Assembly: GCA_963749705.1 (NCBI GenBank)
Contig: CAVVNQ010000006.1
Coordinates: forward strand, 1-64,000
DNA length: 64,000 nucleotides
DNA from: an uncultured Chloroflexia bacterium
Lineage (GTDB): Bacteria; Chloroflexota; Limnocylindria; Limnocylindrales; CSP1-4
Direction of reading: 5' to 3'
Positions 19,260 to 62,906 of the stretch are shown one piece after another. Within the stretch, counting starts at the first letter, position 1. Each line of letters starts with the position of its first letter. Under the pieces are notes generated by a model. It saw nothing but the letters and a program-made list of their open reading frames with translations, did not search any database and was not told the DNA's origin. Made by a program: the position numbers and the translations under genes.

Positions 19260-19373
19260 TGACTCACCGGGCGCGTCAACGACGCCCACCAACCGGTGCG
19301 ACGAGGCGACTTTGGCCCCTGTGTGGCGTCGGCGCCGCAGCCGGAGGCTCGATCTGACTCGCCCGCTGAGTCG
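19260..19373 (+). repeat. Family-1 palindromic element, copy C (upstream of HTH-nuclease gene 1)
   Basis: TGACTCACcggGCGCGTCA (19260) .. GCCGCAGCCG-N6-CGATC TGACTCGCccgCTGAGTCG (19355). Spacing is 95 bp. Confidence 0.8.
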
Positions 19374-19459
19374 CGGACCGCGTGGAGTAGACGACCGCCC
19401 GTGCAAGTACCCGGCTGCTCGGCAAGTCCGGGGTGAGTGACCTCAGGTAGAACAGGTGC

Positions 19460-20462
19460 ATGGCTCCCGAGGCGCGCATCAGAATCGAAGCCGCCGGCAT
19501 GTCCACCGCGGTCGCGACGCTGGTCCGGGACGCTCGTTCAACGATCGGCTGGTCTCAGCGCGAGCTGGCCCACCGCGTCGGTACGTCCCAGACGAAGATC
19601 TGGCGGATCGAGCGCGCGGATCCGGGCGCGCTGGACGTCGCGACCCTCGACCGCGTGCTGTCGGCGTTGGGCCTGCGGTCGATGCTCGAGGTCGAGGGCC
19701 ACCACCTGGCGGATCGTCGCGAACAGCGCGATCGAGTGCACGCGCGCCTGATGGCGGGCAATGGCAGGCCGGCTGGAGCGCTGCGGGTGGGTCGCGGCCA
19801 CCGAGGTCCCGATCGGCAGTCGCGAACCACGCGGCTGGATCGACCTCGTGGCGTTCCGCGTCCGGGATGCGGCCATGGCGACATTCGAGCTCAAGTCGGA
19901 CCTGCCGGACATCGGCGGCCTCCTGCGCCAGGTTGACTGGTATGAACGAGCGGCACCGTGGGTCGCCCGACGATTGGGCTGGCGAGCCGAGCACTTCGCG
20001 ATCGCCGTCATCTGCTTGGACACGCAGGCCGTGGCGAGCCGGCTGGACGAGCACCGATGGCTGCTTCGGCCTGCCTTCCCGGGCAGGGCAGGCGTGCTCG
20101 CCACGTGGTTGGGGGATTCGACATCGCCCGTTCCCGAGGGCAGGGTGATGGCCGTCACAGATCTGGCGGCGCGGCGTGGTCTCGCGCTGCGGTCATCGCG
20201 TCTCGAGGGGCAGCGCGCGCGGCCGGCATACCTGGACTATGCGGATGCAGCCAGGTTCGTCGCGCATCATATGCAGCGGGCCAGGGCAACCGGGATGGCT
20301 CGATCAGTCCACCCCGGTACGGACCCCGTCGCTGATGTCGTGACTCGCGGCGCGCGTCATCCGAGCCTCCCGGCACGCGACTGGCGCCGATTTCGGTCCT
20401 TCGGGGCGTCGGCGCCCCAGCCGACATCTCGATCTGACTCGCTGCGTGAGTCGGGCGGCTGA
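19460..20462 (+). CDS. XRE-type HTH + PD-(D/E)xK-like nuclease-domain protein (frameshift ~19757; start 19460 or 19499)
   Basis: HTH segment VRDARSTIGWSQRELAHRVGTSQTKIWRIE, then TEVPI..GWIDLVAF..FELKS. It is a paralog of 62068..62838. Confidence 0.7.
20341..20453 (+). repeat. Family-1 palindromic element, copy D (overlaps 3' tail of HTH-nuclease gene 1)
   Basis: TGACTCGCggcGCGCGTCA (20341) and TGACTCGCtgcGTGAGTCG (20435) are 94 bp apart. Confidence 0.8.
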
Positions 20463-20469
20463 GGGCGAG

Positions 20470-21528
20470 CTACTCGGTGGGTCGGATGGCGCGGCGGCGA
20501 ACGGCGCGGGCCGGCTGGGTCGAGGACGGGTTGCCGAACGTGCGGGGATCGAGGCCTGCGGCGATCGCGTCCTCGGGGGTCATCGCCGCCAGCGACGCGG
20601 CTCGGCCCAGCGCGCGGATTGCCGCGAAGGCCTCGTCGCGGGCCAGGTCGCGCAGCGGCGTCGCGTTGGCCAGCCCGACCCGGCGAAGCCCGCGGAGACC
20701 CGTCGATGCCGCGTAGTTGGCCGCCCACACGAGCACCGGCGCCTGGTCATCCGTCGCGGACGGGCCGGCTCGCAGCGCCCCGCACACGATCCCCCGCTCC
20801 GGTGGCGCGGCGCGTACGAGCACCCAGTCGTCGGGGCCTGCGATCAGGTCGAACAGGTGCGAGTGGTAGGGCGCCGCAAAGATCGTCTCGGCGCCCGCGT
20901 CTGCGGCGGATCCGCCCCAGATGGCGAGCATCGCGTGGAGGTCGGGCACGGGCTCGAGCAGCCGTCGCTCGGCCTCCGCGAACAGTCGTCGCTCGCCCGT
21001 GTTCGTCCCGATCCGCACCGCGTCGGGCTCCTCGACGACGACGACGGGGCAGCCCGCGTCAGCCAGGGAGCGCAGCGCGTCGCCCAGCGTGTCGGCGAGC
21101 GCCAGGGTCCGCTTCCGGCGCTCCGCGGCGGATCCGCCGCCCGCGCGTCGACCGAGCATGTACGGGCCCGGTATGGACTGTGCGACCGGATGATCCGTGA
21201 GCGCCGCGGTCGATCGCCACGCGGAGGTCAGCAGCGAGGCCGGGGACCCGTCCGGCGAGGCCGGCGGCGCGCCGGGCGAGTCCTCGTGGACCGCCGAGAT
21301 CGCCGCGACCACCGCGCCGCCGAGGTCATGCCACCTGACCTGGCCGTCGGTCACGAGCTCGAGCCCCGCCTCCACCTGCGCGCCGACGAGCTCCGCGACC
21401 AGCCGGTCCGTCGCCGCGTCGAAGGCCTCGCGGGTGGCCGTCCCCGCGGCGACCTCGGCCTCGAGCGCATCGAGGTCGATCCCGTCAGCGGTGATCCGCG
21501 GCAGCGCGCCGCTCAGCATCCCGAACAT
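20470..21528 (-). CDS. MetE/URO-D-fold protein (single-barrel methionine-synthase-like, Zn ligands apparently absent)
   Basis: QVEAGLELVTDGQVRW, SIPGPYML and GCPVVVVEEP resemble the MetE C-terminal barrel. Confidence 0.6.
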   Translation of the reverse strand: MFGMLSGALPRITADGIDLDALEAEVAAGTATREAFDAATDRLVAELVGAQVEAGLELVTDGQVRWHDLGGAVVAAISAVHEDSPGAPPASPDGSPASLLTSAWRSTAALTDHPVAQSIPGPYMLGRRAGGGSAAERRKRTLALADTLGDALRSLADAGCPVVVVEEPDAVRIGTNTGERRLFAEAERRLLEPVPDLHAMLAIWGGSAADAGAETIFAAPYHSHLFDLIAGPDDWVLVRAAPPERGIVCGALRAGPSATDDQAPVLVWAANYAASTGLRGLRRVGLANATPLRDLARDEAFAAIRALGRAASLAAMTPEDAIAAGLDPRTFGNPSSTQPARAVRRRAIRPTE

Positions 21529-21534
21529 CGATCG

Positions 21535-22758
21535 TCAGGACCAGGCGCTGATGCCGATGGCCCACAGCACGGCGAACAGGCCCAGCAGCGCGACGATCCC
21601 CGCCACGCGGAGCAGCTGCGTGCCGCCCGCTCCGAAGGCCGGCTCCATCGTGCCGCTCAGCCGGCCGGGTCGCATCCACAGCGAGCTCAGGGTCGGGAGG
21701 TGGGTCGGCGGCAACAGCAGCCCGAGCCACGCGCCGGCGATCAGCCCGCCGATGTGGGCCATGTTGTCGATGCCCTGGACCACGAATCCGAAGACGAGAT
21801 TGAGTGCCACCAGCGCACCCAGCTGCCCAAGGAAGGCGCGGCTGCGGCTGTCGAGCACCGGACGATGGACCCGCTGGGCGACGAACAGGAGCCCGAACAG
21901 GCCGAAGATCGCGCCCGACGCGCCGACCCCGTAGCGGCTGCCGGGACCCGTCGACAGGGCGAACGTCAGCAGCGAGCCGCCCGCGGCGAACACCAGGTAG
22001 AAGACGAGGAAGCGCCATCGGCCGTACAGCCGTTCGACGAACGGCCCGGCGATCCACAGCGCATACATGTTGAACAGCAGGTGAAACGGCATCACCGTGA
22101 GCGGCGCGTGGACCAGGGTCACCGTCCACAGCCGCCAGATCTCGCCCTGCGCGAGAGCCACCTTGTCCATCGCCAGCAGGTTGCCCAGCGCGTCGCCGTC
22201 GGGACCCGCGAAGTCGACGATGAGCGACACGATCGTGGTGAACGCGATCAGCGCGACCGTGACCGAGATCCCGGTATCGCCGCGGGATCGCGCGAAGTAG
22301 CGGCCGGCCGCACCCTTGTCGCCCAGCTCCTTGGACAGCCAGCCGAGCCGAGACGCGATCTCGGGCTTGTCCGCCGACGGTGCCCGCCGGTCCGCCTCGC
22401 GGTAGGCGGCGAGCGCGCCGCGCAGGTCGTCGGCCCGCACCCTGGCCGCGGCGATGTTGCGCCACGCCAGGTACGTCGACGGCGTCTCCGGGAGCCGGGT
22501 GACCTCCTCCCACGTCGCCATGGCCTTGCCCTCGTCGTCGAGCCGGTTCCACGCCTCGCCCAGGCCCAGCAGCGCGGCCGCGGTGACCGCGGGGTCGTTG
22601 AACCCGATCACGCGCTGGTACAGCCTGGCGGCATCGACGAAGTCCGAGCTCTGGAGCAGCTCCGCGGCACGGTCGAGGGCGGCCAGCGCCGCCTCGCGTG
22701 GCAGCGGGCCGTCGTGGGCGAGGGTGGCGTTGAGGTCGATGTCCTGGCGTTCGGTCAC
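21535..22758 (-). CDS. Rhomboid intramembrane serine protease with N-terminal TPR-like region
   Basis: GEIWRLWT..HLLFNMYAL..GASGAIFG..AHIGGLIAG, preceded by a helical TPR-like N-terminus. Confidence 0.85.
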   Translation of the reverse strand: MTERQDIDLNATLAHDGPLPREAALAALDRAAELLQSSDFVDAARLYQRVIGFNDPAVTAAALLGLGEAWNRLDDEGKAMATWEEVTRLPETPSTYLAWRNIAAARVRADDLRGALAAYREADRRAPSADKPEIASRLGWLSKELGDKGAAGRYFARSRGDTGISVTVALIAFTTIVSLIVDFAGPDGDALGNLLAMDKVALAQGEIWRLWTVTLVHAPLTVMPFHLLFNMYALWIAGPFVERLYGRWRFLVFYLVFAAGGSLLTFALSTGPGSRYGVGASGAIFGLFGLLFVAQRVHRPVLDSRSRAFLGQLGALVALNLVFGFVVQGIDNMAHIGGLIAGAWLGLLLPPTHLPTLSSLWMRPGRLSGTMEPAFGAGGTQLLRVAGIVALLGLFAVLWAIGISAWS

Positions 22759-22873
22759 GGCGGGAGCGTACATGAGGCGGCATGCCCGGCGTGGCGCGGG
22801 AGGACCGCCGCGTGGCGCAGAGCGCCGCGTGCCGCGGGAGGACCGGGACCGCGTCCCGTAGACTGCCGCCACC

Positions 22874-23587
22874 ATGTGCGGACGGTTCACGCAGCAGCGG
22901 CCCACCTCGGAGATCGCCCGGATCTTCGATGCCGAGGACCTGGCCGGGGATCCCGGCGAGCACTTCAATGTCGCGCCCACGACCGAGGCGTCGGTGGTGG
23001 TCCAGCGCGATGACCGCCGCGCGGTACGGCGCTACGGCTGGGGCCTGATCCCCAACTGGGCCGACGACCCGCGGATCGCCGCCCGCACGTTCAACGCCCG
23101 GGCCGAGACCCTCGCCACCAGCCCGCTGTTCCGCGACGCCTTCCGGCGACGCCGCTGCCTGGTGCCCGTCGACGGGTTCTACGAGTGGCTCCGACGGGGA
23201 TCGAAGCGCCAGCCGATGCTGATCCATGACCCGGCGAACCTGCCGCTGGCGCTGGCCGGGCTGTGGACCGGGCGCCAGGATCCCGAGAGCGGCGAATGGC
23301 ATCGGACGTTCACGATCGTCACGTCGCGGCCAAACGGGTTCATGGCCGCCATCCATAACCGGATGCCGGTCGTCATCCCGCCCGACGCCTGGGCGATCTG
23401 GCTCGACCCGGAGCTTCGCGACCCCGGCGAGCTGCGCGCCCTGCTCGAGCCCGATGACGACATCGCGCTCGACGCATACCCAGTTCCACTGCTGGTCAAC
23501 AACGTGCGCAACGACGGCGCGGCGCTCGTCCAACGGGTCGAGCTCGAGGCGGCCGACCCGGCGTCCGAGGGGCTCGGGCTCGGATAG
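22874..23587 (+). CDS. SOS response-associated peptidase (SRAP/YedK/HMCES family)
   Basis: MCGRF N-terminus, FNARAET, RCLVPVDGFYEW and IHNRMPV. Confidence 0.92.
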   Translation: MCGRFTQQRPTSEIARIFDAEDLAGDPGEHFNVAPTTEASVVVQRDDRRAVRRYGWGLIPNWADDPRIAARTFNARAETLATSPLFRDAFRRRRCLVPVDGFYEWLRRGSKRQPMLIHDPANLPLALAGLWTGRQDPESGEWHRTFTIVTSRPNGFMAAIHNRMPVVIPPDAWAIWLDPELRDPGELRALLEPDDDIALDAYPVPLLVNNVRNDGAALVQRVELEAADPASEGLGLG

Positions 23588-23590
23588 CCC

Positions 23591-23629
23591 CGGCCGTGAT
23601 TGGCGGCCGTGATTGGCGGCGTGATTGGC
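23591..23629. repeat. Short tandem repeat (cggc(c)gtgattgg x3) between convergent genes
   Basis: Read directly from the sequence. Confidence 0.7.
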
Positions 23630-23645
23630 TGGCGCGATCCGCGGA

Positions 23646-24336
23646 TCAGCGCTCGGCGCGAAGCGCCTCCCAGCCCGCGTCCTGCGCGGCGCCGGAGAAC
23701 GCGTCCCGCGGCATCGCTCCCGTGTCGAGCGCCGCGGCGTAGGCGCCCACCAGCGTGGCGAACGCCTGATCGTTCGCCGACGGCGGGGCGGCGAGCACCG
23801 TGGTGGCCTCCGGGATGCCGTCCGGCTCCGCACCATCGGCGGCGATCAGCAGCACCAGGTGCGCCCCCGCGTAGTCGGCGGCCTCGGCGGCGACCGGGAC
23901 GATCGACTCGGGGACGCCGTCCACGACGACGAGCACGCTGAAGGCCGTGAGATAGCCGAGCCCGAGCGAGACGTCGGCCGCGTCGAGGGTCGGTCCGTCG
24001 CCGGGCCCCGGCGCGACCGTGGCGAGCACCCTCCGCGCCCGTGTCGTCCGTGTCGTCCGCGGCCGGGGATGGGTCGCCCTCGTCCCCACGGTCGTCCGCC
24101 GCCGGGACCGCGATCGGGGTTGCGCGCGCCGGGTCCCGGAGCATCGCCACGTGCCCGACGCCGGCGCGGGTGAGCGCGAGCAGCAGTGCGTCACCCGCCG
24201 GATCGTCGCCCGCTCGGCCGACCAGCTCCACGGTCGACCCGCGCCGGGCCGCCTCGATCGCGATGTCGCAGGCGCGACCGGCCGGTGCGCTGGGGTCCGC
24301 GACCCGCCAGACAGGATTTCCCACGACGACGATCAC
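23646..24336 (-). CDS. Degenerate PfkB/ribokinase-like protein (frameshift ~24035)
   Basis: MIVVVGNP..IAIEAARRGSTVELVGRAGDDPAGDALLLALTRAGV resembles PfkB signature 1. The C-terminal half lies in ORF 23646..24194. Confidence 0.55.
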
Positions 24337-24422
24337 GGAGCCAGCGTACCCCGGGCGGGGCCACGCGGCCGGCCGCGGACCGCGGGCTCACCGGTTGACC
24401 GGAACCCACACGCGGTTCGCGC

Positions 24423-25199
24423 TCAGCCGTCGCCGGGCGTCTCGGATGGATGCGGCGTTTCTGACGGCCGGGGCGTCTGGCTGGGCTTCGGCGTCGACGG
24501 GGACTCGGAGTGGTCCTCGTGGTCCGAGCTGGTCGGCGTCGGGGTCGCCGTCGGCTTCGGCGTGGCGGTCTTGCCGGCACCGCCGTTGCCGTCCGCGGTC
24601 TCGTGCGGCTCGGTCGAGGCGTCCGGCTCGGCGGACTCATCGCCCGCGCTCTCCGACGGCTCCGGTGACTCCGAGGCGTCGGGGCTCGTCGAGGCGTCCT
24701 CGCTGGGCTCGGCGGTATCGGACGCGTCCGTGGTCGGCTCGGCGGTTTCGGCCGGCTGCTCGATCGAGGGGCTGGGGCTCGAATGGTCGCCGTCCAGCAG
24801 GCCGAGGGCGCCTGCCGTGACCATGCCGGAACCCGCCGCCAGGGCGGCGACCACCAGCACCAGCGCCATCGCCTGGGCGCGCGCCGCGACCGGGAACCCG
24901 GCATGGGTGGTCACCCGCCATGCATCGCGGAGCGACGCCAGGAATGCGCCGAGCGAGCGGCGTCGGACGGCGAGGCCGGCCAGGCGAACCGGCGATGGGG
25001 CGGGTTCGGCGGCCACGGCCTCCATGACCCGGTCCGCGAACCCCGGGGTCGGTGCGGCGGTCGTGCCCGCGGCGAGTCGCTCGAGGTCGCGGGCGATCGG
25101 GGTATCGCCGGCGATCTCGTCGGGGTGCAGGCCGGACGCTCCATCGAGCTCCGCCGGCGTGAACGGGCGCGGCTGGCCGCCGGGGCGCATCTCGGTCAT
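24423..25199 (-). CDS. Putative membrane anti-sigma factor with S/E/P/T-rich extracytoplasmic tail
   Basis: It overlaps the ECF sigma stop (ATGA), contains PTPGFADRVMEAV, has one TM helix and a low-complexity C-terminus. Confidence 0.6.
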   Translation of the reverse strand: MTEMRPGGQPRPFTPAELDGASGLHPDEIAGDTPIARDLERLAAGTTAAPTPGFADRVMEAVAAEPAPSPVRLAGLAVRRRSLGAFLASLRDAWRVTTHAGFPVAARAQAMALVLVVAALAAGSGMVTAGALGLLDGDHSSPSPSIEQPAETAEPTTDASDTAEPSEDASTSPDASESPEPSESAGDESAEPDASTEPHETADGNGGAGKTATPKPTATPTPTSSDHEDHSESPSTPKPSQTPRPSETPHPSETPGDG

Positions 25200-25930
25200 C
25201 GGTCGTCCGCCTCGACGGATCCGCGAAGGCGGGCAAGCCCGCGGTGGAGATGCGTCTTGACGGTCCCCAGGGGCCGGCCGGTGGCCTCGGCGATCTCGAT
25301 CAGCGAGCGCTCGGCGAAGAAGCGCAGGGCCACGACCTCCCGGTACGGCTCGTCGAGCGAGGCAACGGCCATCCGCAGGCGTGCGTCGCGCTCGGATCGC
25401 AGCACCGTGTGCGCCGGGTCCGCCGCGTGCTGCGGGTTGGTTGTCCGGAAGCGCTCGTGGCCGGGCTGGTCGGCATCCGCCGCAAGCGGATCGAGCCAGG
25501 CGACCTGCTTGCGCTGCGCAGCACGACGGACGGCCAGGCGGACCGCGATCCGCGACAGCCAGGCGCCGAACGCGCCTTCGGCGCGCCAGGAACCGAGCGA
25601 GCGGTACGCGATCACGAATGCCTCCTGGGCGATGTCCTCGGCCTCGCTGCGGTCGCCGAGCACGCGCGTGCAGGCCGCCACGACCGATGGGCCTTCGCGC
25701 TCGACGAGCTTGCGAAAGGCGTCACGGTCGCCGGCCAGCACGGCGTCGACGATGCTGCGGTCATTGGTCGTCCCGTCGAATGGCTCGGCGGTCCAGGTCC
25801 GGTCCGTCGCGGTGGTCTCCAATGCGTGTTCCGGGTCCGGCGCCCGGTTGGGCGACCCGGCGGGAGCCGGCTCGGCGTCCGGCGACATCATCGCCTGCCG
25901 GCCCGGCTCCCATCGTGCGAAGGAGGTCAC
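25196..25930 (-). CDS. ECF RNA polymerase sigma factor (start uncertain)
   Basis: GDRDAFRKLV..AEDIAQEAF..FGAWLSRIA..REVVALRF..EIAEATGRPLGTVKTHLHRG. Confidence 0.9.
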   Translation of the reverse strand: MTSFARWEPGRQAMMSPDAEPAPAGSPNRAPDPEHALETTATDRTWTAEPFDGTTNDRSIVDAVLAGDRDAFRKLVEREGPSVVAACTRVLGDRSEAEDIAQEAFVIAYRSLGSWRAEGAFGAWLSRIAVRLAVRRAAQRKQVAWLDPLAADADQPGHERFRTTNPQHAADPAHTVLRSERDARLRMAVASLDEPYREVVALRFFAERSLIEIAEATGRPLGTVKTHLHRGLARLRGSVEADDR

Positions 25931-25956
25931 GTGCCCCGCTGGGACCGTCGACTGGA

Positions 25957-26436
25957 TCAGCCGTCCGAGCCGTGTCCGCCACCGTCCTCGCCGCCCGAGC
26001 CGTCGTGGTCCTCGGGGCTGGAGCTTGCGCCCGGACCGTCATGATCGTCGCCGACCTCGGGGGTCTCGCTGGCCTCGGGGGTCTCGGTGGCGTCGTCGCC
26101 ATGATGGTCGGTCGCGCCGGCCTGCTGGCTGTCGGCGCCGCCGTGGTCGTCGCTGGCCTCGGGGGTCTCGCTGGCCTCGGGGGTCTCGCTGGCCTCGGGG
26201 GTCTCGCTGGCCTCGGGGGTCTCGCTGGCCTCGGGGGTCTCGCTCGGCTCCGCGGACTCGGCATCGATCGCGGCCGACGCATCATCGCCGGCCGACGCAT
26301 CGAGCGCCGCGGGAGCGGTGTCCGCATTGCGGCTGCCATCGACGAAGGTGCTGGTGGCAAACGCGGCGCCCGCGACGAGGAACACCGCCACGACTGAGGT
26401 GCCGATCGGGCGGATCATCCTGGAGTTGAGCTTCAT
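25957..26436 (-). CDS. Secreted acidic protein with (SETPEA)n repeats
   Basis: Signal-peptide-like N-terminus and an 18-bp tandem repeat at 26150-26244. It is the first gene of the ECF operon. Confidence 0.7.
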   Translation of the reverse strand: MKLNSRMIRPIGTSVVAVFLVAGAAFATSTFVDGSRNADTAPAALDASAGDDASAAIDAESAEPSETPEASETPEASETPEASETPEASETPEASDDHGGADSQQAGATDHHGDDATETPEASETPEVGDDHDGPGASSSPEDHDGSGGEDGGGHGSDG

Positions 26437-26493
26437 GTGGTGGTCGCTCCGGTGATGGTGCGGCCCCCTCGCTGGGCCCGCTTCACCCCTCCC

Positions 26494-26520
26494 GAGGCCG
26501 TTGACCGCGCAAAGGTTTCA
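26494..26520 (-). promoter_or_regulatory. Possible ECF-type promoter (-35 TGAAAC)
   Basis: Minus strand TGAAACCTTTGCGCGGTCAACGGCCTC lies upstream of the ECF operon. The -10 element is not canonical. Confidence 0.25.
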
Positions 26521-26629
26521 GCGACCGGTCCGCGCGGGCGGGCTTGGCGGGGGGGCTTGGCGGGCGACCTCGAGCCCGACCTTGCCGGCGGCCGACGCGG
26601 AGCGACCGTGGACGCGCCGGAGACGTGCC

Positions 26630-29343: not shown

Positions 29344-29435
29344 GCGGAACGAGTCCTCGGACGGTGAGTAGGGTTGGATGGATTGTAGGGCGGCGAGCGC
29401 GATCGGGACCGCGCGGGGCCTGCGCGACGGGCCCG

Positions 29436-29861: not shown

Positions 29862-29919
29862 CGGACATCCCAGTCTATCGAGCAGCACGTTTGGCCGCCC
29901 CCAAGTAGACTGCCGAACC

Positions 29920-30552: not shown

Positions 30553-30556
30553 CACC

Positions 30557-32069: not shown

Positions 32070-32120
32070 GTCGCACGCCAGGTCACTCGCCAGGTCGCTC
32101 GCCGTTCGCGGCGCGTGCCG

Positions 32121-35100
32121 CTAGTCCGCCCGGTCGATCCCCGGCTTCGGTGGCACCCAATCCGTGATCGGCCGCACCATCGAGATCCCCGACGCCAGCG
32201 CGGGGTCGAGCGCCTCGGCGGCCGCGATCCCCGTCTCGATCGCGGTCAGACACAGGATGCCCTCGGCAATCGCGGTGTGCCGGATCTCCGCGGCGTCGCG
32301 GACGGCGCCGGACCGCGGCGTGGGGGTGTTGACGACGAGGCGGATCCGGGCGCCCGAGATCAGGTCGAGGATCCCGGCCTCGTCGCCCAGCGGGGTCACT
32401 CCGAGCTTGGCCACGGGCTCAGCGGCCAGTCCGGCCGCCTCGAGCGCGGCTCGGGTGCCTGCGGTTGCGGCCAGCCGGTAGCCCGCTCGGGTGAGCGCCG
32501 TCGCCAGGTCGAGGAGCCCCCACTTGTCGCGATCTGCGATCGACAGCAGGGCCAGCGGCGGCTCGCCGTCCCCCGGGCGAGGCGGGATGAGCGATGCCCC
32601 GGTCAGCGCCTTGGCCATCGCCACGCGCGGGTCCTCGGCGATGCCGATCACCTCGCCCGTCGACTGCATGAACGGTCCGACGGAGGGGTCCACGCCCTTG
32701 AGCTTCGCGGTCGAGAATGCCGGTGCCTTGACCGCGACGAACGCGGGCTCCGGGAGCAGCCCGTCCGGCCAGCCGAGGTCGATCAGCGTGGCACCCAGCG
32801 AGATCCGCACCGCGAGCTCGACCATCGGGACGCCGGTGACCTTGGACAGGAACGGCACCGTGCGGCTCGCGCGCGGATTGACCTCGATCAGGTAGACGCC
32901 ATCGTCCCGCACGATGAACTGGGCGTTGACCAGGCCGCGAGCCCCGAGGGCGAGGCAGATGCGTTCCATCGTGGCCACGATCAGCGCCTGGTCGCCCTCG
33001 GAGACGTGCTGCGGCGGGAACACCGCGATCGAGTCGCCCGAGTGGATCCCGGCGCGCTCCACGTGCTCCAGGAGGCCCGGGATCAGGACCCGCTCGCCAT
33101 CGCTCACCGCATCGATGTCGACCTCGATCCCCTCGAGGAAGCGGTCGATCCGCACCGGGCGATCCGGGTCGACGATCGCAGCCGCCGCAAGGTGGCGGAC
33201 CAGGTCCTCGGGCGAGTACGCGAAGTCGATGGCGAGGCCGCCGATGACGAAGCTCGGCCGCACGATCACCGGGTAGCCGATCCGCTCGGCGAGCGTCAGG
33301 GACTCCTCGACCAATTCGGCCATCCCTCCCTCCGGCTGCGGGATGCCCAGGCGGTCCAGCAGGGCGGCGAAGCGCGTGCGCTCCTCGGCCTGGTTGATCG
33401 CCTCCAGGTCCGAGCCGAGCAACGGGACGCCGGCGGCCACGAGCGGACCCGCGAGGTTGAGCGGCGTCTGGCCGCCGAAGGCGACGACCGCGGGGAGCGG
33501 GCGGCCGATGCCGGCAGCCTCACGGGGGCTCAGCCTGGCGACCGCCCGCCCCTGACCGGCACGGGTGCGGCCACCCCTGTCCGCGATGACCGTCGCCGCA
33601 TCGGCGGGATGCACGTCGGCACGGGTGCGGCCACCCCTGTCCGCGATGACCGTCGCCGCATCGGGTGGCGTTCCCGCGGTCCCGCCCGCGCCCCGGGCGA
33701 TGCGCGGACGCTCATCGCCAACGGGGGTGGTTGTGGCCGTGGCCGGACTGGCGGACGCCGCCGCGCTGGCAGACGCCGCCGCGCTGGCAGACGCCGCCGC
33801 GCTGGCAGACGCCGCCGCGCTGGCAGACGCCGCTCCGCCGGCCGTGGCCACGCCGGCCGCATCGGCGCCGGCTGCACTCCCCATCGCCACGGGCAGGCCA
33901 CCTTCGAACTCGAGGATGTCCTCGACGCTCTCGGCATCGAGCGGCTCGAAGTACAGCCGGGTGGAGGCGTCGAAGTCGGTGGACACGGTCTCGGGGTTGG
34001 AGTTGACCATGACGGCGCTCCAACCCTCGCGCCGGAGCACGTCAGCAGCCTGGACCGCGCAGTAGTCGAACTCGATCCCCTGCCCGATCCGCACGGGACC
34101 GCTGCCGATGACGAGTGCACCGGGCCGCGGCACCGGCGCTGCCTCCGGCGGCGATCCCGCCGCGGCATAGGTCGAGTAGAAGTACGGGGTCTCGGCGGCG
34201 AACTCGGCGGCACAGGTATCGACCATCGCGTAGCCGGGCGCGAGCCCGAGCGTTCGCCGGGCGGCGCGGACATCCGCTTCGCGGACCCCCGCGAGCCGTG
34301 CCAGGTCATGGTCCGCGAACGCCGCGCGCTTGGCGGTCGCCAGCAACGTCGCCGCCTCGGGGTCGGCGGCATCGGCGAACCGCGGGCCGATCGCCTCCAC
34401 ATCGTGCTCGAGCACGATGTTGCGTCCCATCTCGGCGAGAAACCAGGGCGAGATCCCGGTCGCCGCGCGGACCACCTCCTGCGGGACGCCCCGGCGCAGC
34501 AGCCCGAGCACCCGCCACAGTCGCGAGTCGGATGGCTCGAGGAACTGGCGGAGCACGATCGGCGCCGCGGACCGCTGCGCGAACCGGGTGCTCTCGCACG
34601 CCTCGCCACGCTCGTCGGTCCAGCGGATGACGGCATCTTCCTCGAGGCCGAGTGGATCGATGGTCACGGCGACGCTGGAGGCGCCCATGCCCGGGTCGCC
34701 ACCGGCGTAGACCGCGGACAGGTAGTCGAGGCTCGGCTGCCACGACGCATCCTCGCCGAGCGGCCCGGCACCCGCCTGCTCCAGGCCCCGAAGCGCCTTG
34801 TTGAGCGCGGCGCCGAACGTCCGGTCGATCGCCATGACCTCACCGGTCGCCTTCATCTGCGACCCGAGCCGCCGGTCGGCCGCCGGGAACTTGTCGAACG
34901 GGAAGCGCGGCAGCTTGACCACCACGTAGTCGAGCGCCGGCTCGAACGCCGCCACGGTCGTGCCGGTCACCACGTTGGGAATGTCGGCGAGCGTGCGCCC
35001 GGCCGCGATCTGCGCCGCGACCCGAGCGATCGGATAGCCCGTCGCCTTGGATGCGAGCGCGCTCGAGCGCGAGACCCGGGGGTTCACCTCGATCACCGCA

Positions 35101-48501: not shown

Positions 48502-48557
48502 CCCCAGATACTAGATCCAGAATCGCCGATTGAACAGCGGTATGACAGCCCTGGTAC

Positions 48558-52451: not shown

Positions 52452-52452
52452 G

Positions 52453-53742: not shown

Positions 53743-54267
53743 GTCAAACTCGCTCGTTCGCCGTGGCGGGCGGGTGCCGGAGGCCCCACATCGGCCACAG
53801 CATGATCACGGGACGCCGGTACCGATGATGGAAGACACGGGGCCCGGATGGGCGTGCCACTGGTCGCCGTCCGGCCCTGCCAAGGGCATGGTTCGAAGGC
53901 CCGGATGGCCACGGGCGGCGGGTCGGACGGCAGGGTCCGGCCCGACGCCGGGGGTTCGCGACACGATCCCCGGGGGTTTCAAAAGCGTGACGATTTGCGG
54001 CTCCTGGTCGGCGGCCGGCCGGGCGAGCCAGCCGAGCGAGCCAGCCGCCTGCCGATCGGGGCGAGCAACCCGCAGGAGCGCCCGGGCTCGCCCGTCACCC
54101 GCGGCGGGCCGTGTTTCGCGCGGTCCGCAGGGGGACGGGTGCCGCGCCTGCCGCGTCCATGCAAGGTCGCCCCATCGCCATGGTCGTCGTCGCGGGGCTA
54201 GCATCCACGGACAACCGACCGCGTCCCCGCGGCCAGTCCACCATCGGCGAAATGGAGGAGGGCACTC

Positions 54268-57200: not shown

Positions 57201-57655
57201 CGAACCTCGACCAGTTCCGCATCGCCCACATCAACAGCGACTTCCCCGCCGACTACACGGGCGACGTCGCGCGCGGAACCAGCGACCATGATCCGGGCGT
57301 CGCCACATTCGTGGTCCCGTTCCCGTTCAGCGGGTTCGGACCTCCGGTCGAGCCCGCGCCGGCGTTCAACGTCGCCAAGGCGGGCCGGACCGTGCCCGTG
57401 AAGTTCAGCCTCGGCGGCGACCGAGGGCCGGACATCTTCGCCAGCGGGCCGACGGCGACGCCGATCTCGTGCGCGGATGGAACGCCGACCGGCGCCGCCG
57501 TGGCCGCAATGGGCAGCCTCCGGTATGACCGGGTCGCCGACCAGTACGTCTACACGTGGAGGACCGACAGGTCATGGGCCGGCACCTGTGAACAGCTGAG
57601 CTTCACGCTCGTCGACGGGACGTCGCACGAGGCCTGGTTCGACTTCCGGAAATAG
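54268..57655 (+). CDS. Secreted ExeM/NucH-like nuclease: lamin-tail domain, OB-fold, EEP catalytic domain, C-terminal PxKF-type domain (frameshift ~55665)
   Basis: VVISQVYGGGGN..NDFVELFN; YNLENL, QEVEN, NNHFKS, GGDLN, LDQMF, SDHDP; GRTVPVKFSL. Confidence 0.85.
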
Positions 57656-57715
57656 CGCGTCGTCGCACGACGACCGTCCATCCTGGGCCCCGGCACCGCC
57701 GGGGCCCTTCGGCGT

Positions 57716-58003
57716 CTAGCCCCGCAGGGCGCCCGCGCCGTGGAACACGACGAGCGTCTCCCGGCGGCTCCCCGAGCCGACCTGTTGGTCGGCAACCACG
57801 GCGTGACCGGACAACGTTCGACCGCCGGCGGTTCGGCCGGTGAGCTCGCCGTCGGCCACGGCCGGGCATGCGCGCGTCAGCACGCGAGCGACCCATTGCG
57901 GCTGACCCTGGGGGTCGTTCCAGCAGTCCATGGTCGCGCTGGGCAGCGGGACCCCGGCGAAGGTCACGTCAAGGAGGGCAAAGCGCTCGTGTTTCAGGGC
58001 CAC
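57716..58003 (-). CDS. Hypothetical protein (95 aa)
   Basis: Non-shadow composition, with a TACTGT -10-like hexamer 6 nt upstream of the GTG. Confidence 0.5.
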   Translation of the reverse strand: MALKHERFALLDVTFAGVPLPSATMDCWNDPQGQPQWVARVLTRACPAVADGELTGRTAGGRTLSGHAVVADQQVGSGSRRETLVVFHGAGALRG

Positions 58004-58039
58004 GTGCCAACAGTACTCCCGGTTGCGCCCGAATCGAAG

Positions 58040-58061
58040 AACCCCTCCGCCCGGAGGGGTT
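58040..58061 (-). terminator. Hairpin terminator downstream of tRNA-Lys
   Basis: AACCCCTCCG-CC-CGGAGGGGTT is a perfect inverted repeat. Confidence 0.6.
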
Positions 58062-58083
58062 GGTTCGTGGATGCGACCGGGGT

Positions 58084-58158
58084 TGGTGAGCGCGCAGGGA
58101 TTCGAACCCTGAACCTAGTGATTAAGAGTCACTTGCTCTACCGTTGAGCTACGCGCCC
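58084..58158 (-). tRNA. tRNA-Lys (anticodon CTT)
   Basis: GGGCGCGTAGCTCAACGGTAGAGCAAGTGACTCTTAATCACTAGGTTCAGGGTTCGAATCCCTGCGCGCTCACCA folds as a cloverleaf with loop CUCUUAA and an encoded CCA. Confidence 0.95.
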
Positions 58159-58394
58159 GGACCGGCGGAAGGATAGCGCAAGTCCCCCGCCCAGCGCGAT
58201 GGCGGCGGTGCCGCACCAACCCGGGCCGCTGACGCCCACCACGCATCAATTCTCGACGACGCGCGTCGGTTCGATCCCTCCCGGGCATCGTCGCGACGAG
58301 TTGAGGGACCGAATCGGTCGACCTGATGTCCACCAGGCGCCGAGCGGACGTCACCCGGCCAATGTTGATGCCGCCGGGGCATCACCTCGGTCGC

Positions 58395-59903
58395 TCAGCC
58401 CGGCTGGTTGTCGATCTGCGCGCGCTGCAGCCGGCCGCTGAAGTCGACGTACACGGCCTTCCACTCCGTGAACGTGTCGAGCGCCACGTGGCCCGCCTCG
58501 CGGTGGCCGTTCCCGGTGTTCTTCCAGCCACCGAACGGCAGGTGGGTCTCGGCGCCCGTCGTGCCGGCATTGACGTACACGATCCCGGTCTCGAAGTCGC
58601 GCATCGCGCGGAAGGCGAGGTTCACGTCGCGGGTGTACACCGATGCCGACAGCCCGTACCGAACCTGGTTGGCGGCCGTCATCGCCTCGTCGTAGCCGTC
58701 GACCGGCACGACCGAGAGCACGGGGCCGAAGATCTCCTCCTGGGCGATGGTTGCCATCGGGGCGACGCCGTGGAAGATGGTCGGCTGGAAGAAGTGGCCA
58801 TGGTCCAGTTCGGCGCCGGTCGCACGCGCGCCACCGGTGACCAGCTCGCCCTCCCGGTTGCCGATGGCGACGTAGCGCTCGACCTTCTCGGAGGCTGCGG
58901 CGTTGACGAGGGGCCCGACATCGACCGTCTCATCGAGCCCGGAGCCCAGGCGGAGCGCCCTCGTCCTCGTCTCGAGGCGCGCCACCAGGTCGTCGGCGAC
59001 GGCCCGGTCCACGATCACCCGCGAGCACGCGGTGCACCGCTGGCCCGTCGTCCCGAACGCCGACCACAGGATCCCGTCGACCGCGAGGTCGAGGTCCGCA
59101 TCCCGCAGCACGACGACGGCGTTCTTGCCGCCCAGCTCGAGGCTGAGGCGCTTGAGCCGCCGGCCCGCTCGTTCCGCGATCGTCCGGCCCGTCGAGGAGG
59201 AGCCGGTGAACGAGATCACCTCGATGTCCGGATCGTCCACGATCGGGTCGCCGACGTCCGCGCCCGACCCGGTGACCAGGTTGACGACGCCCGGCGGGAA
59301 CCCGGCCTCATCCATCAGCTCGACCAGGAGCGTCGCGCAGTGGGGCGCATCGCTCGAGGGTTTGAACACGACGGCGTTGCCGGCGACGAGCGCGGGCATC
59401 ATCTTCCAGCACGGGATCGCGATCGGGAAGTTCCAGGGCGTGATGATCCCGGCGATCCCGATCGGCTGGCGGATGCTCATCGCCCACTTGTCGGGCAGCT
59501 CCGAGGGGACCGTGTCGCCGAACATCCGGCGACCCTCGCCCGCCATCAGGAACGCGATGTCGATCCCTTCCTGGACGTCTCCCCGAGCCTCGGCCAGGAC
59601 CTTGCCCATCTCGCGGGTCATCGCCCGGGCGAGCCGCTCCTTGTGCTCCGCCATGAGCGCGCCGAAGCGGTACAGCAGCTCCCCGCGCTTGGGGGCGGGC
59701 GTCGCCTTCCATGCCGGCAGCGCCATGTCGGCCGCGCGGACCGCCATCGCCACGTCGGCCGGCGTGCCCGCCTGAAAGCGCCCGACGACATCTCGCGTGT
59801 CGGCGGGGTTGACGCTCTCGAACGTCTCGCCGGACACGCCATCGACCCAGCGGCCGGCGATGAACAGGCGAAAGGTGTCGGTGGTTGCGGCTGCCTCGGG
59901 CAT
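58395..59903 (-). CDS. Aldehyde dehydrogenase family protein
   Basis: ITPWNFP, FTGSS, LELGGKN, GQRCTA and QEEIFGPV. Confidence 0.93.
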   Translation of the reverse strand: MPEAAATTDTFRLFIAGRWVDGVSGETFESVNPADTRDVVGRFQAGTPADVAMAVRAADMALPAWKATPAPKRGELLYRFGALMAEHKERLARAMTREMGKVLAEARGDVQEGIDIAFLMAGEGRRMFGDTVPSELPDKWAMSIRQPIGIAGIITPWNFPIAIPCWKMMPALVAGNAVVFKPSSDAPHCATLLVELMDEAGFPPGVVNLVTGSGADVGDPIVDDPDIEVISFTGSSSTGRTIAERAGRRLKRLSLELGGKNAVVVLRDADLDLAVDGILWSAFGTTGQRCTACSRVIVDRAVADDLVARLETRTRALRLGSGLDETVDVGPLVNAAASEKVERYVAIGNREGELVTGGARATGAELDHGHFFQPTIFHGVAPMATIAQEEIFGPVLSVVPVDGYDEAMTAANQVRYGLSASVYTRDVNLAFRAMRDFETGIVYVNAGTTGAETHLPFGGWKNTGNGHREAGHVALDTFTEWKAVYVDFSGRLQRAQIDNQPG

Positions 59904-60068
59904 CGGGGTCCTCGGGCTGGTGGTCGGCGGATGGGTTGATCGTCAGCGGTGCAGGCGCGCTTCGTCAATGACGGCGTTGCAGGGGGTGGGTCCACGCGGC
60001 CGGGGTCGGATCCCTGGTTCGACAGCGCTGCCCTCGTGATCGAGAATCGGCGTCAGGAGGACGTGCGC

Positions 60069-60299
60069 GTGGCCCTGGAAGTCGAGGCGATCAACCCCAT
60101 CCGGATCGGCGCGTTCCCCCCGAACCTGCTCTACGTGTTCGTGCGCTGGGAGGTGACCTGCGCGTTCTGCCGCACGCGCTTCCGTCGCTGGGCCCTGGAG
60201 CTGTTCTTCGGCTCGCGACTGAGCTGGGTCGGCTGTCCGGCGTGCGGGACGCACAACCTGCTGCCCCACCACCCGAAGCTGCGCGACCGGGGGTCGTGA
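60069..60299 (+). CDS. Small zinc-ribbon-like protein (2x CxxC)
   Basis: AGGAGG RBS before GTG 60069; CAFC...CPACGTHN. Confidence 0.5.
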   Translation: MALEVEAINPIRIGAFPPNLLYVFVRWEVTCAFCRTRFRRWALELFFGSRLSWVGCPACGTHNLLPHHPKLRDRGS

Positions 60300-60364
60300 C
60301 CTTCGTTCGGGCGGGGTCATTCCCTCGTGCCTCGCCGTCGCCGTCGCCGTCGCCGGCGCCCAGG

Positions 60365-61600
60365 TCAGACGCGTTCGAACGCCATCGCGACCGATCCCCC
60401 ACCGCCGAGGCACAGCGTCGCCATCCCGTAGCGGCCCTCCCGCCGGCGCAGCTCGTGCAGGAGCGTGGCCACGATCCGCGCGCCAGACGCCCCGATCGGA
60501 TGCCCCAGCGCGATCGCGCCGCCGTTGACGTTGACCCTGGACCAGTCGAAGCCGAGCTCGCGCCCGTCGGCCAGCGTCTGGGCAGCGAACGCCTCGTTGA
60601 TCTCGATCAGGTCGAAGTCGGCGGGTGAAAGCCCCGTCTTCGCCTCCAGTCCGCGCACCCCCTGGATCGGCGCGAGGAACAGCCACCTGGGCGTGACCTC
60701 GGCCTGCGCGTAGCCGACGATCCGGGCGAGGGGCTTGAGGCCGTGCTGCTCCACCGCGCGCTCGGACGCGACGACGGTGGCCGCACCGCCGTCCGTGATC
60801 CCGGGGGCGTTGCCGGCCGTGACGGTGCCGCTGGTCGCGTCGCCGCGATCCTCGCCGGTCGGGAGGTCGAACACCGGCTTGAGCCTGGCCAGCGCCTCGG
60901 CCGTGGTGTCGCGGCGCGGGCTCTCATCGACCGCCACGACGGTCTCGCGCCCCTTCGCGTCGCGGATCGTGACCGGCGCCATCTCGTCGTCGAAACGGCC
61001 CGCGTCGATCGCTGCGACGGCCCGCAGGTGGCTCTCGAGCGCGAGCGCATCCTGGTCCTCGCGGCTGACGCGGTTGGAGATCGCGACGCGCTCCGCGTGG
61101 GTGCCCATGTGGCAGTCCTCGACCGAGCACCACAGGCCGTCGAGGACGGTCGAATCCTCGAGCGTCCCGTTGCCCAGTCGGTAGCCGAAGCGCGCCTTGC
61201 GCAGCAGGAACGGCGCCTGGTTCATCGACTCCATGCCGCCCGCGACGTACACGTCGCCGTCGCCCGCGCGGATCCCGGCCGCCGCGAACATGATCGACTT
61301 GAGCCCGGAGCCGCACACGCGGTTGATCGTGGTCGCAGGGGTCGTGTCCGCAAGCCCGGCCCGAAGCAGCGCCTGGCGCGCCGGTGCCTGGCCCGCGCCC
61401 GCCTGCAGGACCTGGCCCATGATCACCTCGTCGATGGGCGAGCCCTCGGGGAGGCCCGATCGTTCGACCGAAGCGCGGATGGCGGTGGCACCCAGCTCGA
61501 CGGCGGGAACGCCGGCGAGCGCGCCGCCGAACTTGCCGATTGGGGTGCGCGCGGCGCTGACGAGATAGACGTGGCCATTGGGCCCGCTCGAGTGCTCCAT
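60365..61600 (-). CDS. Acetyl-CoA C-acetyltransferase (thiolase)
   Basis: INRVCGSGL, EINEAFA, GGAIALGHPIGASG and TLCLGGG. Confidence 0.94.
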   Translation of the reverse strand: MEHSSGPNGHVYLVSAARTPIGKFGGALAGVPAVELGATAIRASVERSGLPEGSPIDEVIMGQVLQAGAGQAPARQALLRAGLADTTPATTINRVCGSGLKSIMFAAAGIRAGDGDVYVAGGMESMNQAPFLLRKARFGYRLGNGTLEDSTVLDGLWCSVEDCHMGTHAERVAISNRVSREDQDALALESHLRAVAAIDAGRFDDEMAPVTIRDAKGRETVVAVDESPRRDTTAEALARLKPVFDLPTGEDRGDATSGTVTAGNAPGITDGGAATVVASERAVEQHGLKPLARIVGYAQAEVTPRWLFLAPIQGVRGLEAKTGLSPADFDLIEINEAFAAQTLADGRELGFDWSRVNVNGGAIALGHPIGASGARIVATLLHELRRREGRYGMATLCLGGGGSVAMAFERV

Positions 61601-61683
61601 GGCCGCAATCTACACCGCGGGAGCGCCGGGGGCCGGCCACTGGAGCGGCGGGTCGTTGCCTGGACCACGGGTCGTCACCTGTC

Positions 61684-61756
61684 CGCGGGTCCTCGCCTCG
61701 GCCGCGGGTCCTCGCCTGCCCGCGGGTCCTCGCCTGCCCGCGGGTCCTCGCCTGCC
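61684..61756. repeat. 18/19-bp tandem repeat x4 (cgcgggtcctcgcct..) abutting the family-2 element
   Basis: Read directly from the sequence. Confidence 0.8.
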
Positions 61757-61950
61757 GAATGTCCGCCAAGCGGACGCTAGCCGGCGTCGAGGCGCGGCCG
61801 GCAGCGATCCAGCCGACAGCGCCATGACGAATGCCCGCCAGGTGGACGCATTGCAGTCGGTTGGGGCGATTCGGCGCGGCCAAACCCGGAGACGCGGTCG
61901 GGACCCAGCCCGGACGCTGGCGAACGCTCGCGTGGCGGTCAAATGACATG
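61751..61950 (+). repeat. Family-2 palindromic element upstream of HTH-nuclease gene 2
   Basis: Boxes tgtccgc-caa-gcggacg (61760), tgcccgc-cag-gtggacg (61832, the same +72 spacing as the 5360 copy) and cgctcgc-gtg-gcggtca (61925). Confidence 0.72.
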
Positions 61951-62067
61951 CTGCCGGGGCGCATCGGGGTCAAGGCAACGCTGTGCTCGGCGGCGTGCTC
62001 ACATCGAAATTCGCCGCCCCGGATGCCCGGTGAGCCGCGGGTAAGCCTTCCTCGCGAGACTGCAGCG

Positions 62068-62838
62068 ATGGACGATGTCGCGGTCGGCCGAATGGTTCGA
62101 GCCGTACGCCATCGCCTCGGGAGGCGGCAGCAGGACATCGCCGATGCGACAGGCGTTTCGCGCCAGGTGGTGTCGCGGATCGAGCGTGGGCGGATCGACG
62201 AGGTATCGATCACGGCGCTGCGGGCGGTCGCTAACCGGCTCGAGATGCGGGTGGATTTCGCGGTCCGGTGGCGCGGGGGCGAGCTCGATCGGCTCGTCAA
62301 TCGTCGACACGCGGCGATGCACGAAGCCGCGCTGGCGATGTTCGCGGGCCGCGGTGGCTGGCAGGTCGTATCGGAGCTGTCGTTCAACGAATGGGGCGAG
62401 CGAGGCATCATCGATCTGGTGGGCTGGAATGCCGAACATCGCGCGCTGGCGATCATCGAGCTCAAGAGCGCCATCGTCGATCCGGGCGAGCTCGTCGGAA
62501 CGATGGACCGGCGGCGACGGCTCGGACAGCCGATCGCGCGGTCGCGAGGCTGGGATCCCGAGGCGGTCGGCAGCTGGGTGATCGTCGACGATACGCGCAC
62601 CAACCGTCGCCATCTCGCCGCGACCCGGCGGCTCCTTCGAGGCGCCTTCCCGGCCGACGGTCACGCATTGCGTCGATGGCTCAGCACCCCGTCGGCGCCG
62701 ATCGCGGGCCTCGCGTTCCTGACATCCGCCCGCAGCATGGACACTAGCCAGCGTGTCCGCCCTGGTCAGCCGGCCGCTGGCCGGAATCGCGGCGATGTCC
62801 AGGCATCCCGTCCGTCACGTGGGCGGATGACACGGTGA
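62068..62838 (+). CDS. XRE-type HTH + PD-(D/E)xK-like nuclease-domain protein (paralog of 19460..20462)
   Basis: VRAVRHRLGRRQQDIADATGVSRQVVSRIERG, then SELSF..GIIDLVGW..IIELKS..AFP..LRRWL. Confidence 0.75.
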   Translation: MDDVAVGRMVRAVRHRLGRRQQDIADATGVSRQVVSRIERGRIDEVSITALRAVANRLEMRVDFAVRWRGGELDRLVNRRHAAMHEAALAMFAGRGGWQVVSELSFNEWGERGIIDLVGWNAEHRALAIIELKSAIVDPGELVGTMDRRRRLGQPIARSRGWDPEAVGSWVIVDDTRTNRRHLAATRRLLRGAFPADGHALRRWLSTPSAPIAGLAFLTSARSMDTSQRVRPGQPAAGRNRGDVQASRPSRGRMTR

Positions 62839-62906
62839 CGGGGCTATCTCAGAGGCACACCGCCATGTGACGCCGGCGAACGCTCGCCCGATGGAAATCT
62901 GGCAGG
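62718..62906 (+). repeat. Family-2 palindromic element overlapping the 3' tail of HTH-nuclease gene 2
   Basis: Boxes at 62727, 62809 and 62881. gacgccggcgaacgctcgc matches the upstream gacgctggcgaacgctcgc, and the ends are CCTG(A/C)CA..TGGCAGG. Confidence 0.72.

Follow-up and report, generated by a model that had tools for sequence, protein, structure and literature searches.

Soil Chloroflexota genes encoding a helix-turn-helix domain and a predicted PD-(D/E)xK nuclease fold appear tied to their own families of inverted-repeat elements

Among short repeats associated with a single cognate gene that is inherited vertically, only REPINs and their RAYTs, which use HUH chemistry, are well described to our knowledge. 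REPINs occupy hundreds of places per family. Published accounts, among them 10.1101/2021.07.10.451892, describe one RAYT gene per repeat family, flanked by its own repeats, which are inverted motif doublets with a spacer; they also describe a fixed chromosomal site, vertical inheritance and repeats that are missing where the gene is missing. Here we describe a comparable arrangement in a window of 64,000 nucleotides (nt), positions 1-64000 of contig C6 of the genome G000 (3.6 Mb, 22 contigs, 71% GC). Two paralogous genes of the window, gene 1 and gene 2, each encode an XRE helix-turn-helix (HTH) domain followed by a predicted PD-(D/E)xK nuclease fold, and each lies between two copies of its own family of inverted-repeat elements. 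We consider it very likely that each paralog is specifically tied to its repeat family. By analogy with RAYTs, we tentatively read this tie as a partnership of gene and repeats built on a different enzyme, with a probability of about 0.45.

A sequence-only reading of the window had proposed two paralogous HTH-nuclease genes on the + strand among - strand genes, with gene 2 separating hbd from the thiolase gene. Each was said to lie between two copies of one element family, the downstream copy overlapping the 3' tail of the open reading frame (ORF), with solo copies of both families elsewhere. The strands and neighbours are as described, and profile searches recovered the flanking copies, the overlaps and the solo copies. 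Both domains are present in each gene, but gene 1 is not one ORF. The features are:

19257-19378, +: family-1 element upstream of gene 1, about 120 nt, inverted ends TGACTCAC... and ...GTGAGTC (nhmmer, alignment; profile R2, 90 bits)
19460-19756, +: N-terminal XRE HTH part of gene 1 (ORFs, Pfam HTH_31, alignment with the G009 and G066 orthologs)
19761-20462, +: PD-(D/E)xK-like part of gene 1 with an extension of about 58 codons, its tail encoded by the downstream element (ORFs)
20337-20459, +: family-1 element within the 3' tail of gene 1 (nhmmer, alignment, R2)
9759-9881, +: solo family-1 element in an intergenic gap of a cox-like cluster (nhmmer, alignment)
11415-11537, +: solo family-1 element in the next-but-one intergenic gap (nhmmer, alignment)
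61690-61756, +: four tandem 18-nt units abutting the upstream family-2 element
61747-61951, +: family-2 element upstream of gene 2, ending 117 nt before the start codon (profile)
62068-62838, +: gene 2, XRE HTH and predicted PD-(D/E)xK fold, its disordered tail encoded by the downstream element (ORF, Pfam, model, structure searches)
62714-62910, +: family-2 element, left arm starting at gene 2 codons F217-L218-T219 (profile)
5356-5531, +: solo family-2 element, a convergent pair of end motifs, each about 40 nt (profile)

Gene 1 lies between a CoxS-like ORF and the ORF at 20470-21528, both on the - strand. It is split over two frames, with the HTH in 19460-19936 and the nuclease part in 19761-20462. 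Alignment with the gene 1 orthologs of G009 and G066 shows an extra G near 19756 in the window, and this G is missing from a contig of the public soil run X1 (depth 3.8), which suggests that the frame break may be an assembly error or a strain variant. Gene 2 is a single open frame of 256 amino acids between the thiolase gene (60365-61600) and hbd (63000-63860), both on the - strand. A GC-rich, inverted-looking low-complexity stretch lies at 62895-62990.

We located family 1 at 22 places in G000 by profile search, with full-length copies at E 1e-15 to 1e-24; the two solo copies in the window sit in separate gaps between - strand genes. Family 2 resolves into convergent pairs of end motifs, each about 40 nt long (61747/61951, 62714/62910 and 5356/5531), and G000 holds about 13 such pairs, with motifs 80-280 nt apart. 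The four end motifs around gene 2 recur at the flanks of its orthologs in close relatives. From 22 and about 13 places in 3.6 Mb, simple arithmetic puts the expected chance of same-family copies within 250 nt of both ends of a 1-kb gene in the order of 1e-6 to 1e-4 per gene. Across families we counted 8-22 places per genome, so the elements are not so common that double flanking is expected by chance. Plain local alignment of upstream with downstream flanks at 27 loci of the genus had low power, with the direct score of gene 2 at the 56th percentile of cross-locus controls, and was superseded by the profile and rank tests; blastn-short on the flanks gave only exact matches of 12-28 nt.

The elements are 120-200 nt long and consist of two conserved inverted ends of 25-40 nt around a variable interior. 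In family 1 (119-123 nt), the ends TGACTCAC...TCAA and TTGA...GTGAGTC pair with each other, the majority base has a share of 0.83 in the ends versus 0.59 in the interior, and the spacing is kept. Folding of ten family-1 copies as DNA gave the terminal stem in most centroid structures, and 4 of the 10 fold better than all but at most 6 of 200 shuffles. Single copies hold a short internal palindrome, and RNAalifold found no consensus pair among 26 family-2 motifs. On sequence, the most fitting description of an element is a pair of inverted end motifs whose distance is kept, and not one long perfect palindrome; this build is by analogy that of a REPIN or a miniature inverted-repeat element. A self-blastn of G000 for unbiased repeat discovery returned mostly paralogous coding regions, and family 4 (see below) was the sole repeat family among its results.

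The arrangement is repeated elsewhere in the genome. A tblastn search found six paralogs in G000, at most 50% identical to each other and 28-50% identical to gene 2 (g2):

C6:19499-20462: g1 (gene 1)
C6:62068-62838: g2 (gene 2)
C8:206110-206841: g3
C15:11101-11874: g4
C18:52620-53279, -: g5
C3:435599-436279: g6

Five of the six have their own, distinct repeat family at the 3' end, in line with the proposal of one family per paralog, and exactly one member of each family touches a paralog. Families 3, 4 and 5, defined from the 3' flanks of g3, g4 and g5, occur at 8, 11 and 9 places in G000, each matching on both strands. An additional upstream copy is found only at g1 and g2. In g2-g5 the left arm of the element starts at the last conserved strand codons (F-L-T, F-W-P or F-V-S), and in g1 it starts about 58 codons further on. 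A candidate family from the 3' flank of g6, the most divergent paralog, was rejected, as its matches are tRNA-like sequence; such a sequence lies at C3:436360-436460, 220 nt downstream of g6.

We then compared repeats and orthologs across 57 genomes of the same genus. Three repeat models were used: R1 (family-2 end motif), R2 (family 1) and R3 (family 4, trained on G000 copies only). R1 counts single end motifs, two per element, and R2 and R3 matches were counted on both strands, so that two matches correspond to about one element. Gene 2 ortholog status was established for 37 of the 57 genomes (25 by whole-genome search, 12 by the hbd locus only), and the remaining 20, with status not established, hold 0-4 R1 matches each. 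All seven ortholog-bearing genomes are rich in family 2 (29, 21, 28, 17, 21, 25 and 12 matches), in contrast to the 30 genomes without an ortholog, of which 29 hold 0-5 matches and one, G002, holds 15. On a single-gene hbd tree, all sister contrasts for family 2 point one way. G041 has the ortholog and 25 matches and its sister G043 has neither ortholog nor matches; G000, G020 and G050 have the ortholog and 21-29 matches, against none in G009 without it; G056 has the ortholog and 12 matches, against 3 in G017 and 4 in G007 without it; and G003 has the ortholog and 21 matches, against 5 in G012 without it. The sister genomes that lack the family-2 repeats are just 0.1-0.16 substitutions per site away in hbd.

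Family 4 shows the same pattern. Eight genomes have a g4 ortholog at 65% identity or more, and they hold 9-24 matches (G000 22, G020 18, G050 23, G066 16, G009 14, G053 24, G041 9, G043 9); in 8/8 one element overlaps the 3' end of the gene by about 10 nt. In 47 of the other 49 genomes we counted 0-4 matches, the other two being G012 (15) and G063 (8). Family 1 is restricted to the single clade that has gene 1 (G000 45, G009 54, G020 46, G050 57 and G066 26 matches); G004 holds 18 matches and the others 0-7. Orthologs of g1, 69-74% identical, are present in G066, G009 and G020, and those of the first two are flanked by elements on either side. Each family has a distribution of its own: families 1 and 4 occur in G009 without family 2, and family 4 occurs in G043 without family 2. 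The link between gene and repeats is therefore made family by family and does not reflect general repeat richness. The expectation that protein clades co-segregate with repeat families was thus borne out for the three families tested.

The chromosomal site of gene 2 was followed through hbd loci from 30 genomes of the genus. In seven (G000, G020, G050, G005, G003, G041 and G056) the gap between hbd and the thiolase gene holds a gene 2 ortholog, 62-93% identical; in 15 it is empty (7-87 nt), in support of the sequence-only reading; in one (G007) a 233-nt gap holds a lone family-2 motif; and in seven it has other content. Over 60 loci, the family-2 profile matched only at the seven ortholog sites and in the G007 gap. 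Fewer motifs are detected with increasing divergence (four in G000, G020, G050 and G041, three in G056, two each in G005 and G003), and alignment of the flanks by eye places motifs on both sides of the gene in 7/7. Gene 2 presence requires at least five changes on the hbd tree. The gene stays at one chromosomal site, like a vertically inherited gene. The gap itself (window 61600-63000; loci L036, L039, L043, L051 and L054-L056) is a variable spot: six genomes carry an ORF of 380-480 amino acids, by eye a histidine kinase with a receiver domain, and one carries other ORFs.

Beyond the genus, a scan with one genome per species gave 470 relatives, of which the best 80 loci, nearly all from Chloroflexota metagenome genomes, were used and 70 had full flanks for testing. 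In 33 of the 70, the best inverted self-match of the 3' flank starts at nt 5-17, at the F217 codon, and ends 140-270 nt further on (binomial p about 5e-31, uniform start as the null). As a rule, the element is an inverted repeat whose left arm is made up of the last conserved codons of the gene. The condition that homologs elsewhere should have flanking elements did not refute the proposal: about half of the loci have a 3' element. Double flanking does not hold as a rule. In 11 of the 70 loci, nhmmer matches the 3' flank best to the upstream flank of the same locus, with about one such case expected by chance; the strong upstream-downstream direct repeats are at L132 (81 bits), L157, L138, L142, L125 and L134, and an upstream copy is present in roughly a fifth of loci.

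To characterize the encoded proteins, we combined domain searches with structure prediction. Pfam places the HTH of gene 2 at residues 6-63 (HTH_3, E 2e-9, 37.8 bits; HTH_31, E 2.1e-9, 38.0 bits; curated cut-offs 23 and 27 bits), and gene 1 scores 26.5 and 33.9 bits with the same models (HTH_31, E 4e-8). Downstream of the HTH, gene 2 reads ...GIIDLVGW...IIELKS and gene 1 GWIDLV...FELKS. An AlphaFold2 model of the gene 2 protein (mean confidence score, pLDDT, 89.2) comprises the HTH at residues 1-68, a PD-(D/E)xK fold at about 80-222 and a disordered tail at 223-256, where the score is only 53-63. A Foldseek search of the PDB matched residues 1-68 to HTH proteins, and the C-terminal part to SduA, the R2 retrotransposon endonuclease domain, EndoMS/NucS, BstEII, R.BspD6I and Can2 (E 6e-5 to 8e-3). 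VIA-align against 48,161 chains returned XisH (2okf) as the best match for residues of about 80-222 (Z 10.2, root-mean-square deviation 3.0, 112 aligned), followed by AF1548 (Z 9.7), NucS (2vld, Z 9.7), VC1899 (Z 9.0), Card1 (Z 8.9), R2 (Z 8.6) and Can2 (Z 8.2); matches to solved nucleases span 104-134 residues. In an alignment of 60 homologs Q21, H81, W98, E103, E111, R112, G113, D116, E131, K133, D138, D147, R151, L152, W204 and R229 are invariant. Because of the fold matches and the invariant D116 and E131-x-K133, we assign the C-terminal domain on the model to the PD-(D/E)xK nuclease fold with its predicted catalytic residues in place, as the sequence-only reading had supposed. In the paralog g6, E-I-W replaces E-x-K and the lysine is lost. 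The predicted homodimer scored 0.34 against a mark of 0.42, which weighs neither way.

The C-terminal domain matched no Pfam, NCBIfam or PADLOC model, all matches being confined to the HTH. A PDB sequence search matched the HTH only; the PADLOC anti-phage defence profiles hit only the HTH region of gene 2 and nothing in the nuclease part of gene 1; and the ESM Atlas gave only unnamed Chloroflexota clusters for the nuclease part. Among 5.8 billion proteins, 554 relatives were found at E <=1e-3, and the named ones are helix-turn-helix regulators. About 15 of the approximately 128 matches listed in the family search begin less than 1 kb from a contig start, and several of those listed carry in-frame stops. 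This suggests that assemblies may be interrupted at or close to these loci and that some gene copies may be decaying.

These proteins are not RAYTs, because the defining HUH/Y1 domain is absent: Pfam and NCBIfam give the HTH only, and the fold is predicted to be PD-(D/E)xK. The likeness to RAYTs and REPINs, as described in those accounts, lies in one gene per family, a gene flanked by its own repeats, inverted doublets with a spacer, a gene at one site with vertical inheritance, and repeats missing where the gene is missing. Apart from the enzyme, the differences are that each family here has 8-22 places, that copies are 50-85% alike, with no master sequence in abundance, that gene and repeat generally meet in a 3' element fused to the end of the ORF, and that several paralog-family pairs share one genome, in a Chloroflexota host. 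Like IS200/IS605 and other insertion sequences with miniature elements, the elements are non-coding with short terminal inverted repeats and a variable interior, and the cognate protein gene runs into an end motif. Unlike in those systems, the gene copies are not near-identical within a genome and are syntenic across species, and no target-site duplication was seen at three polymorphic sites. We know of no PD-(D/E)xK protein that acts as the sole transposase of a bacterial insertion sequence.

The other relatives of the nuclease domain are more distant in arrangement. XisH, the best structural match, is by its entry title (fdxN element excision controlling factor) a small nuclease-fold protein tied to the excision of a DNA element; it differs in having no HTH, and the proteins described here match no Pfam family outside their HTH. 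We know of no repeat family for XisH. NucS/EndoMS, the AF1548-type archaeal nucleases and the nuclease domains of Card1 and Can2 have the PD-(D/E)xK core in common (Z 8.2-9.7) but differ in their N-terminal domains, in having no link to repeats, and in their roles in mismatch or flap cutting or as CRISPR ancillary nucleases. TnsA of Tn7 is a PD-(D/E)xK nuclease that cuts transposon ends; it differs in partnering the DDE transposase TnsB and in its C-terminal DNA-binding domain. No TnsB-like gene was seen among the ORFs beside genes 1 and 2 in the window.

In the partnership that we favour, the HTH would read the conserved end motif of its own family and the nuclease domain would cut at or near the element ends. 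This activity would copy or keep the elements at a very low rate, and the elements would be lost once the gene is gone. We favour this reading because the predicted catalytic residues are invariant, the elements are built like transposable elements and one copy is fused to the gene; because element-bounded young copies exist; and because the loss of repeats between sister genomes outpaces point mutation (0.1-0.16 in hbd). The young copies are three adjacent family-1 pairs in G050 (L198, L203 and L211), 150-193 nt apart from start to start and 0.91-0.94 identical. The flanks of the L203 pair are unrelated on both sides, and the copy is therefore bounded by the element itself. These adjacent pairs are the only sign of recent copying.

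A number of observations weigh against the partnership. The copies are old: in G000, family 1 has a median column identity of 0.52 and a best pair of 0.85, with none at or above 0.9, and the best pair of family 4 is 0.69. Pairwise alignment in G050 and G009 gave a median of 0.69 and no dispersed pair at or above 0.9, the pairs that reach this level being one identical assembly duplicate and the three adjacent pairs. The copy number is low for a replicator, and mobility of the elements is not shown. The elements at 5.4, 9.8 and 11.4 kb of the window are kept in G020; the gap at 5.0-5.6 kb of G000 is unalignable to G020, where family-2-like motifs are seen by eye. Three polymorphic family-1 sites of G020, at which G000 has no profile-detectable copy, showed no clean junction and no target-site duplication; they consist of gaps that have diverged or of an indel of 600 nt that includes a gene fragment as well. 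The proposal that the nuclease drives element proliferation thus found no support, with dispersed copies old and no insertion junction found. The interiors are not clearly palindromic (fold z -0.5 to -3.9 over the ten copies), and conserved ends at a kept spacing fit maintained binding sites too.

The co-occurrence also has exceptions. No ortholog was found in G002 (15 family-2 matches) or in G012 (15 family-4 matches), and no gene 1 was found in G050 (57 family-1 matches; genome 60% complete). About 22 elements are kept both in G000, where gene 1 is broken, and in G020, where it carries a TGA. The training sequences of R1 came from ortholog-bearing genomes, the 65% threshold for gene 4 was set post hoc, and the genomes are related and hence non-independent. 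By appearance, these are non-autonomous elements with inverted repeats, old by now and for the most part static.

At the indel among these polymorphic sites, L181 (G020:C7:125700-127900), about 600 nt with a family-1 element and the 3' part of an ORF are absent from G000 at about window 44830; the flanks are 82-86% identical between G020 and G000. Contigs of four public runs over 18300-21700 showed no joint at the elements, with thin cover (depth 0-4). Joints at 18.5-18.9 kb were rejected, as they come from other organisms at a conserved cox gene.

The strongest rival, unlikely in our view, is that the protein is a regulatory or architectural XRE protein and that the repeats are its binding sites, inverted and paired at a fixed spacing (to form DNA loops, for instance) and retained by selection at each locus. 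The nuclease fold would then serve oligomerisation, sensing or a site-specific nick unrelated to copying. The XRE HTH, the sites upstream of genes 1 and 2 themselves, the mere 8-22 places per family and the element positions shared by G000 and G020 at the three sites looked at all fit such a regulator, as do old copies whose ends and length are nevertheless conserved, and loss of sites after loss of the factor would give the same co-occurrence. A regulator is less easily reconciled with predicted catalytic D...ExK residues that are invariant in 60 homologs, with element-bounded young copies adjoining each other in G050, with a terminal-inverted-repeat build as in transposable elements and with a copy fused to the last codons of the gene in 33/70 loci. 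It also sits poorly with paralog matches that number as many as 14 in a genome and in some cases contain in-frame stops, and with repeats that are gone in sister genomes at 0.1-0.16 substitutions per site in hbd.

It is improbable that the genes represent a new insertion-sequence family, with the gene as a present or recent transposase between the outermost motifs and the short elements as internal-deletion derivatives. Genes 1 and 2 do lie between outer motifs of the flanking elements that point towards each other, the ORF extends into an end motif in the way that many transposase genes extend into the right end, and each genome has many paralogs, several near contig starts. No gene pair in G000, however, exceeds 50% identity, the orthologs of genes 1, 2 and 4 keep a constant site across species, most loci lack the upstream copy, and each side carries a whole element and not a single end. 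At the three polymorphic sites, where the junctions are not clean, no target-site duplication was seen. More improbable still is that the repeats are targets, with the gene a selfish site-specific insert (like a homing endonuclease or an insertion sequence that lands in REPs) beside a pre-existing repeat. Insertion sequences that target REPs are on record (PMC1525189), and the hbd-thiolase gap is variable, with other genes in 7/30 genomes; against this, each family has one gene per genome and not many copies, the elements beside the gene are whole and not split, and repeats are missing where the gene is missing. Both of these rivals rank lower because they fit the synteny and the one-gene-per-family rule less well than the partnership does. 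Chance resemblance in GC-rich low-complexity intergenic DNA, for which the 71% GC and the plain flank alignment of gene 2 could be cited, has a negligible probability and is counted as refuted by full-length profile matches at E 1e-15 to 1e-24, by the same motifs at orthologous loci of seven genomes and by the positional test (p about 5e-31).

A bolder form of the partnership, which we regard as somewhat unlikely, is a second, independent symbiosis of gene and repeats in which an HTH/PD-(D/E)xK nuclease would copy elements by cutting double-stranded or extruded DNA at their ends, with many pairs per genome across Chloroflexota. We know of no bacterial element for which such transposition chemistry has been described. 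A full-text literature search, with supplementary tables outside its scope, found no paper that ties a PD-(D/E)xK or XRE protein to REP-like repeats. If the partnership reading is right, an unrelated enzyme class would have reached the same arrangement, which would make it a general solution and not a curiosity. There would be many natural pairs of DNA-binding domain and target motif from which specificity might be read, several hundred related proteins whose sole annotation is 'helix-turn-helix transcriptional regulator' would gain a role, and some assembly breaks in Chloroflexota metagenome genomes could be accounted for. Even if the proteins are regulators, they would be paralogous regulators with unusually structured, family-specific sets of sites.

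The remaining features of the window are minor. The nearest public relatives of its proteins are from metagenome genomes named Chloroflexota or Candidatus Limnocylindrales, and Rfam at gathering thresholds gave a single match over the whole window, a tRNA gene at 58087-58158 (-). A 9.2-kb contig, C14, mirrors about 4-12 kb of the window (C14:1577/1752, 5978 and 7635 against C6:5356/5531, 9759 and 11415, with equal spacing) and probably represents either a duplicate from assembly or a strain variant. Cox-like genes are duplicated in tandem over 12979-18172, in units of about 2.6 kb (copies 12979-15577 and 15577-18172, 91-99% identical); the second copy is absent in G020, and a third, more distant one is found at about 1.4-4.8 kb. 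The 9/18-nt units arrayed in tandem at 26036-26269 and 33724-33849 are probably coding repeats.

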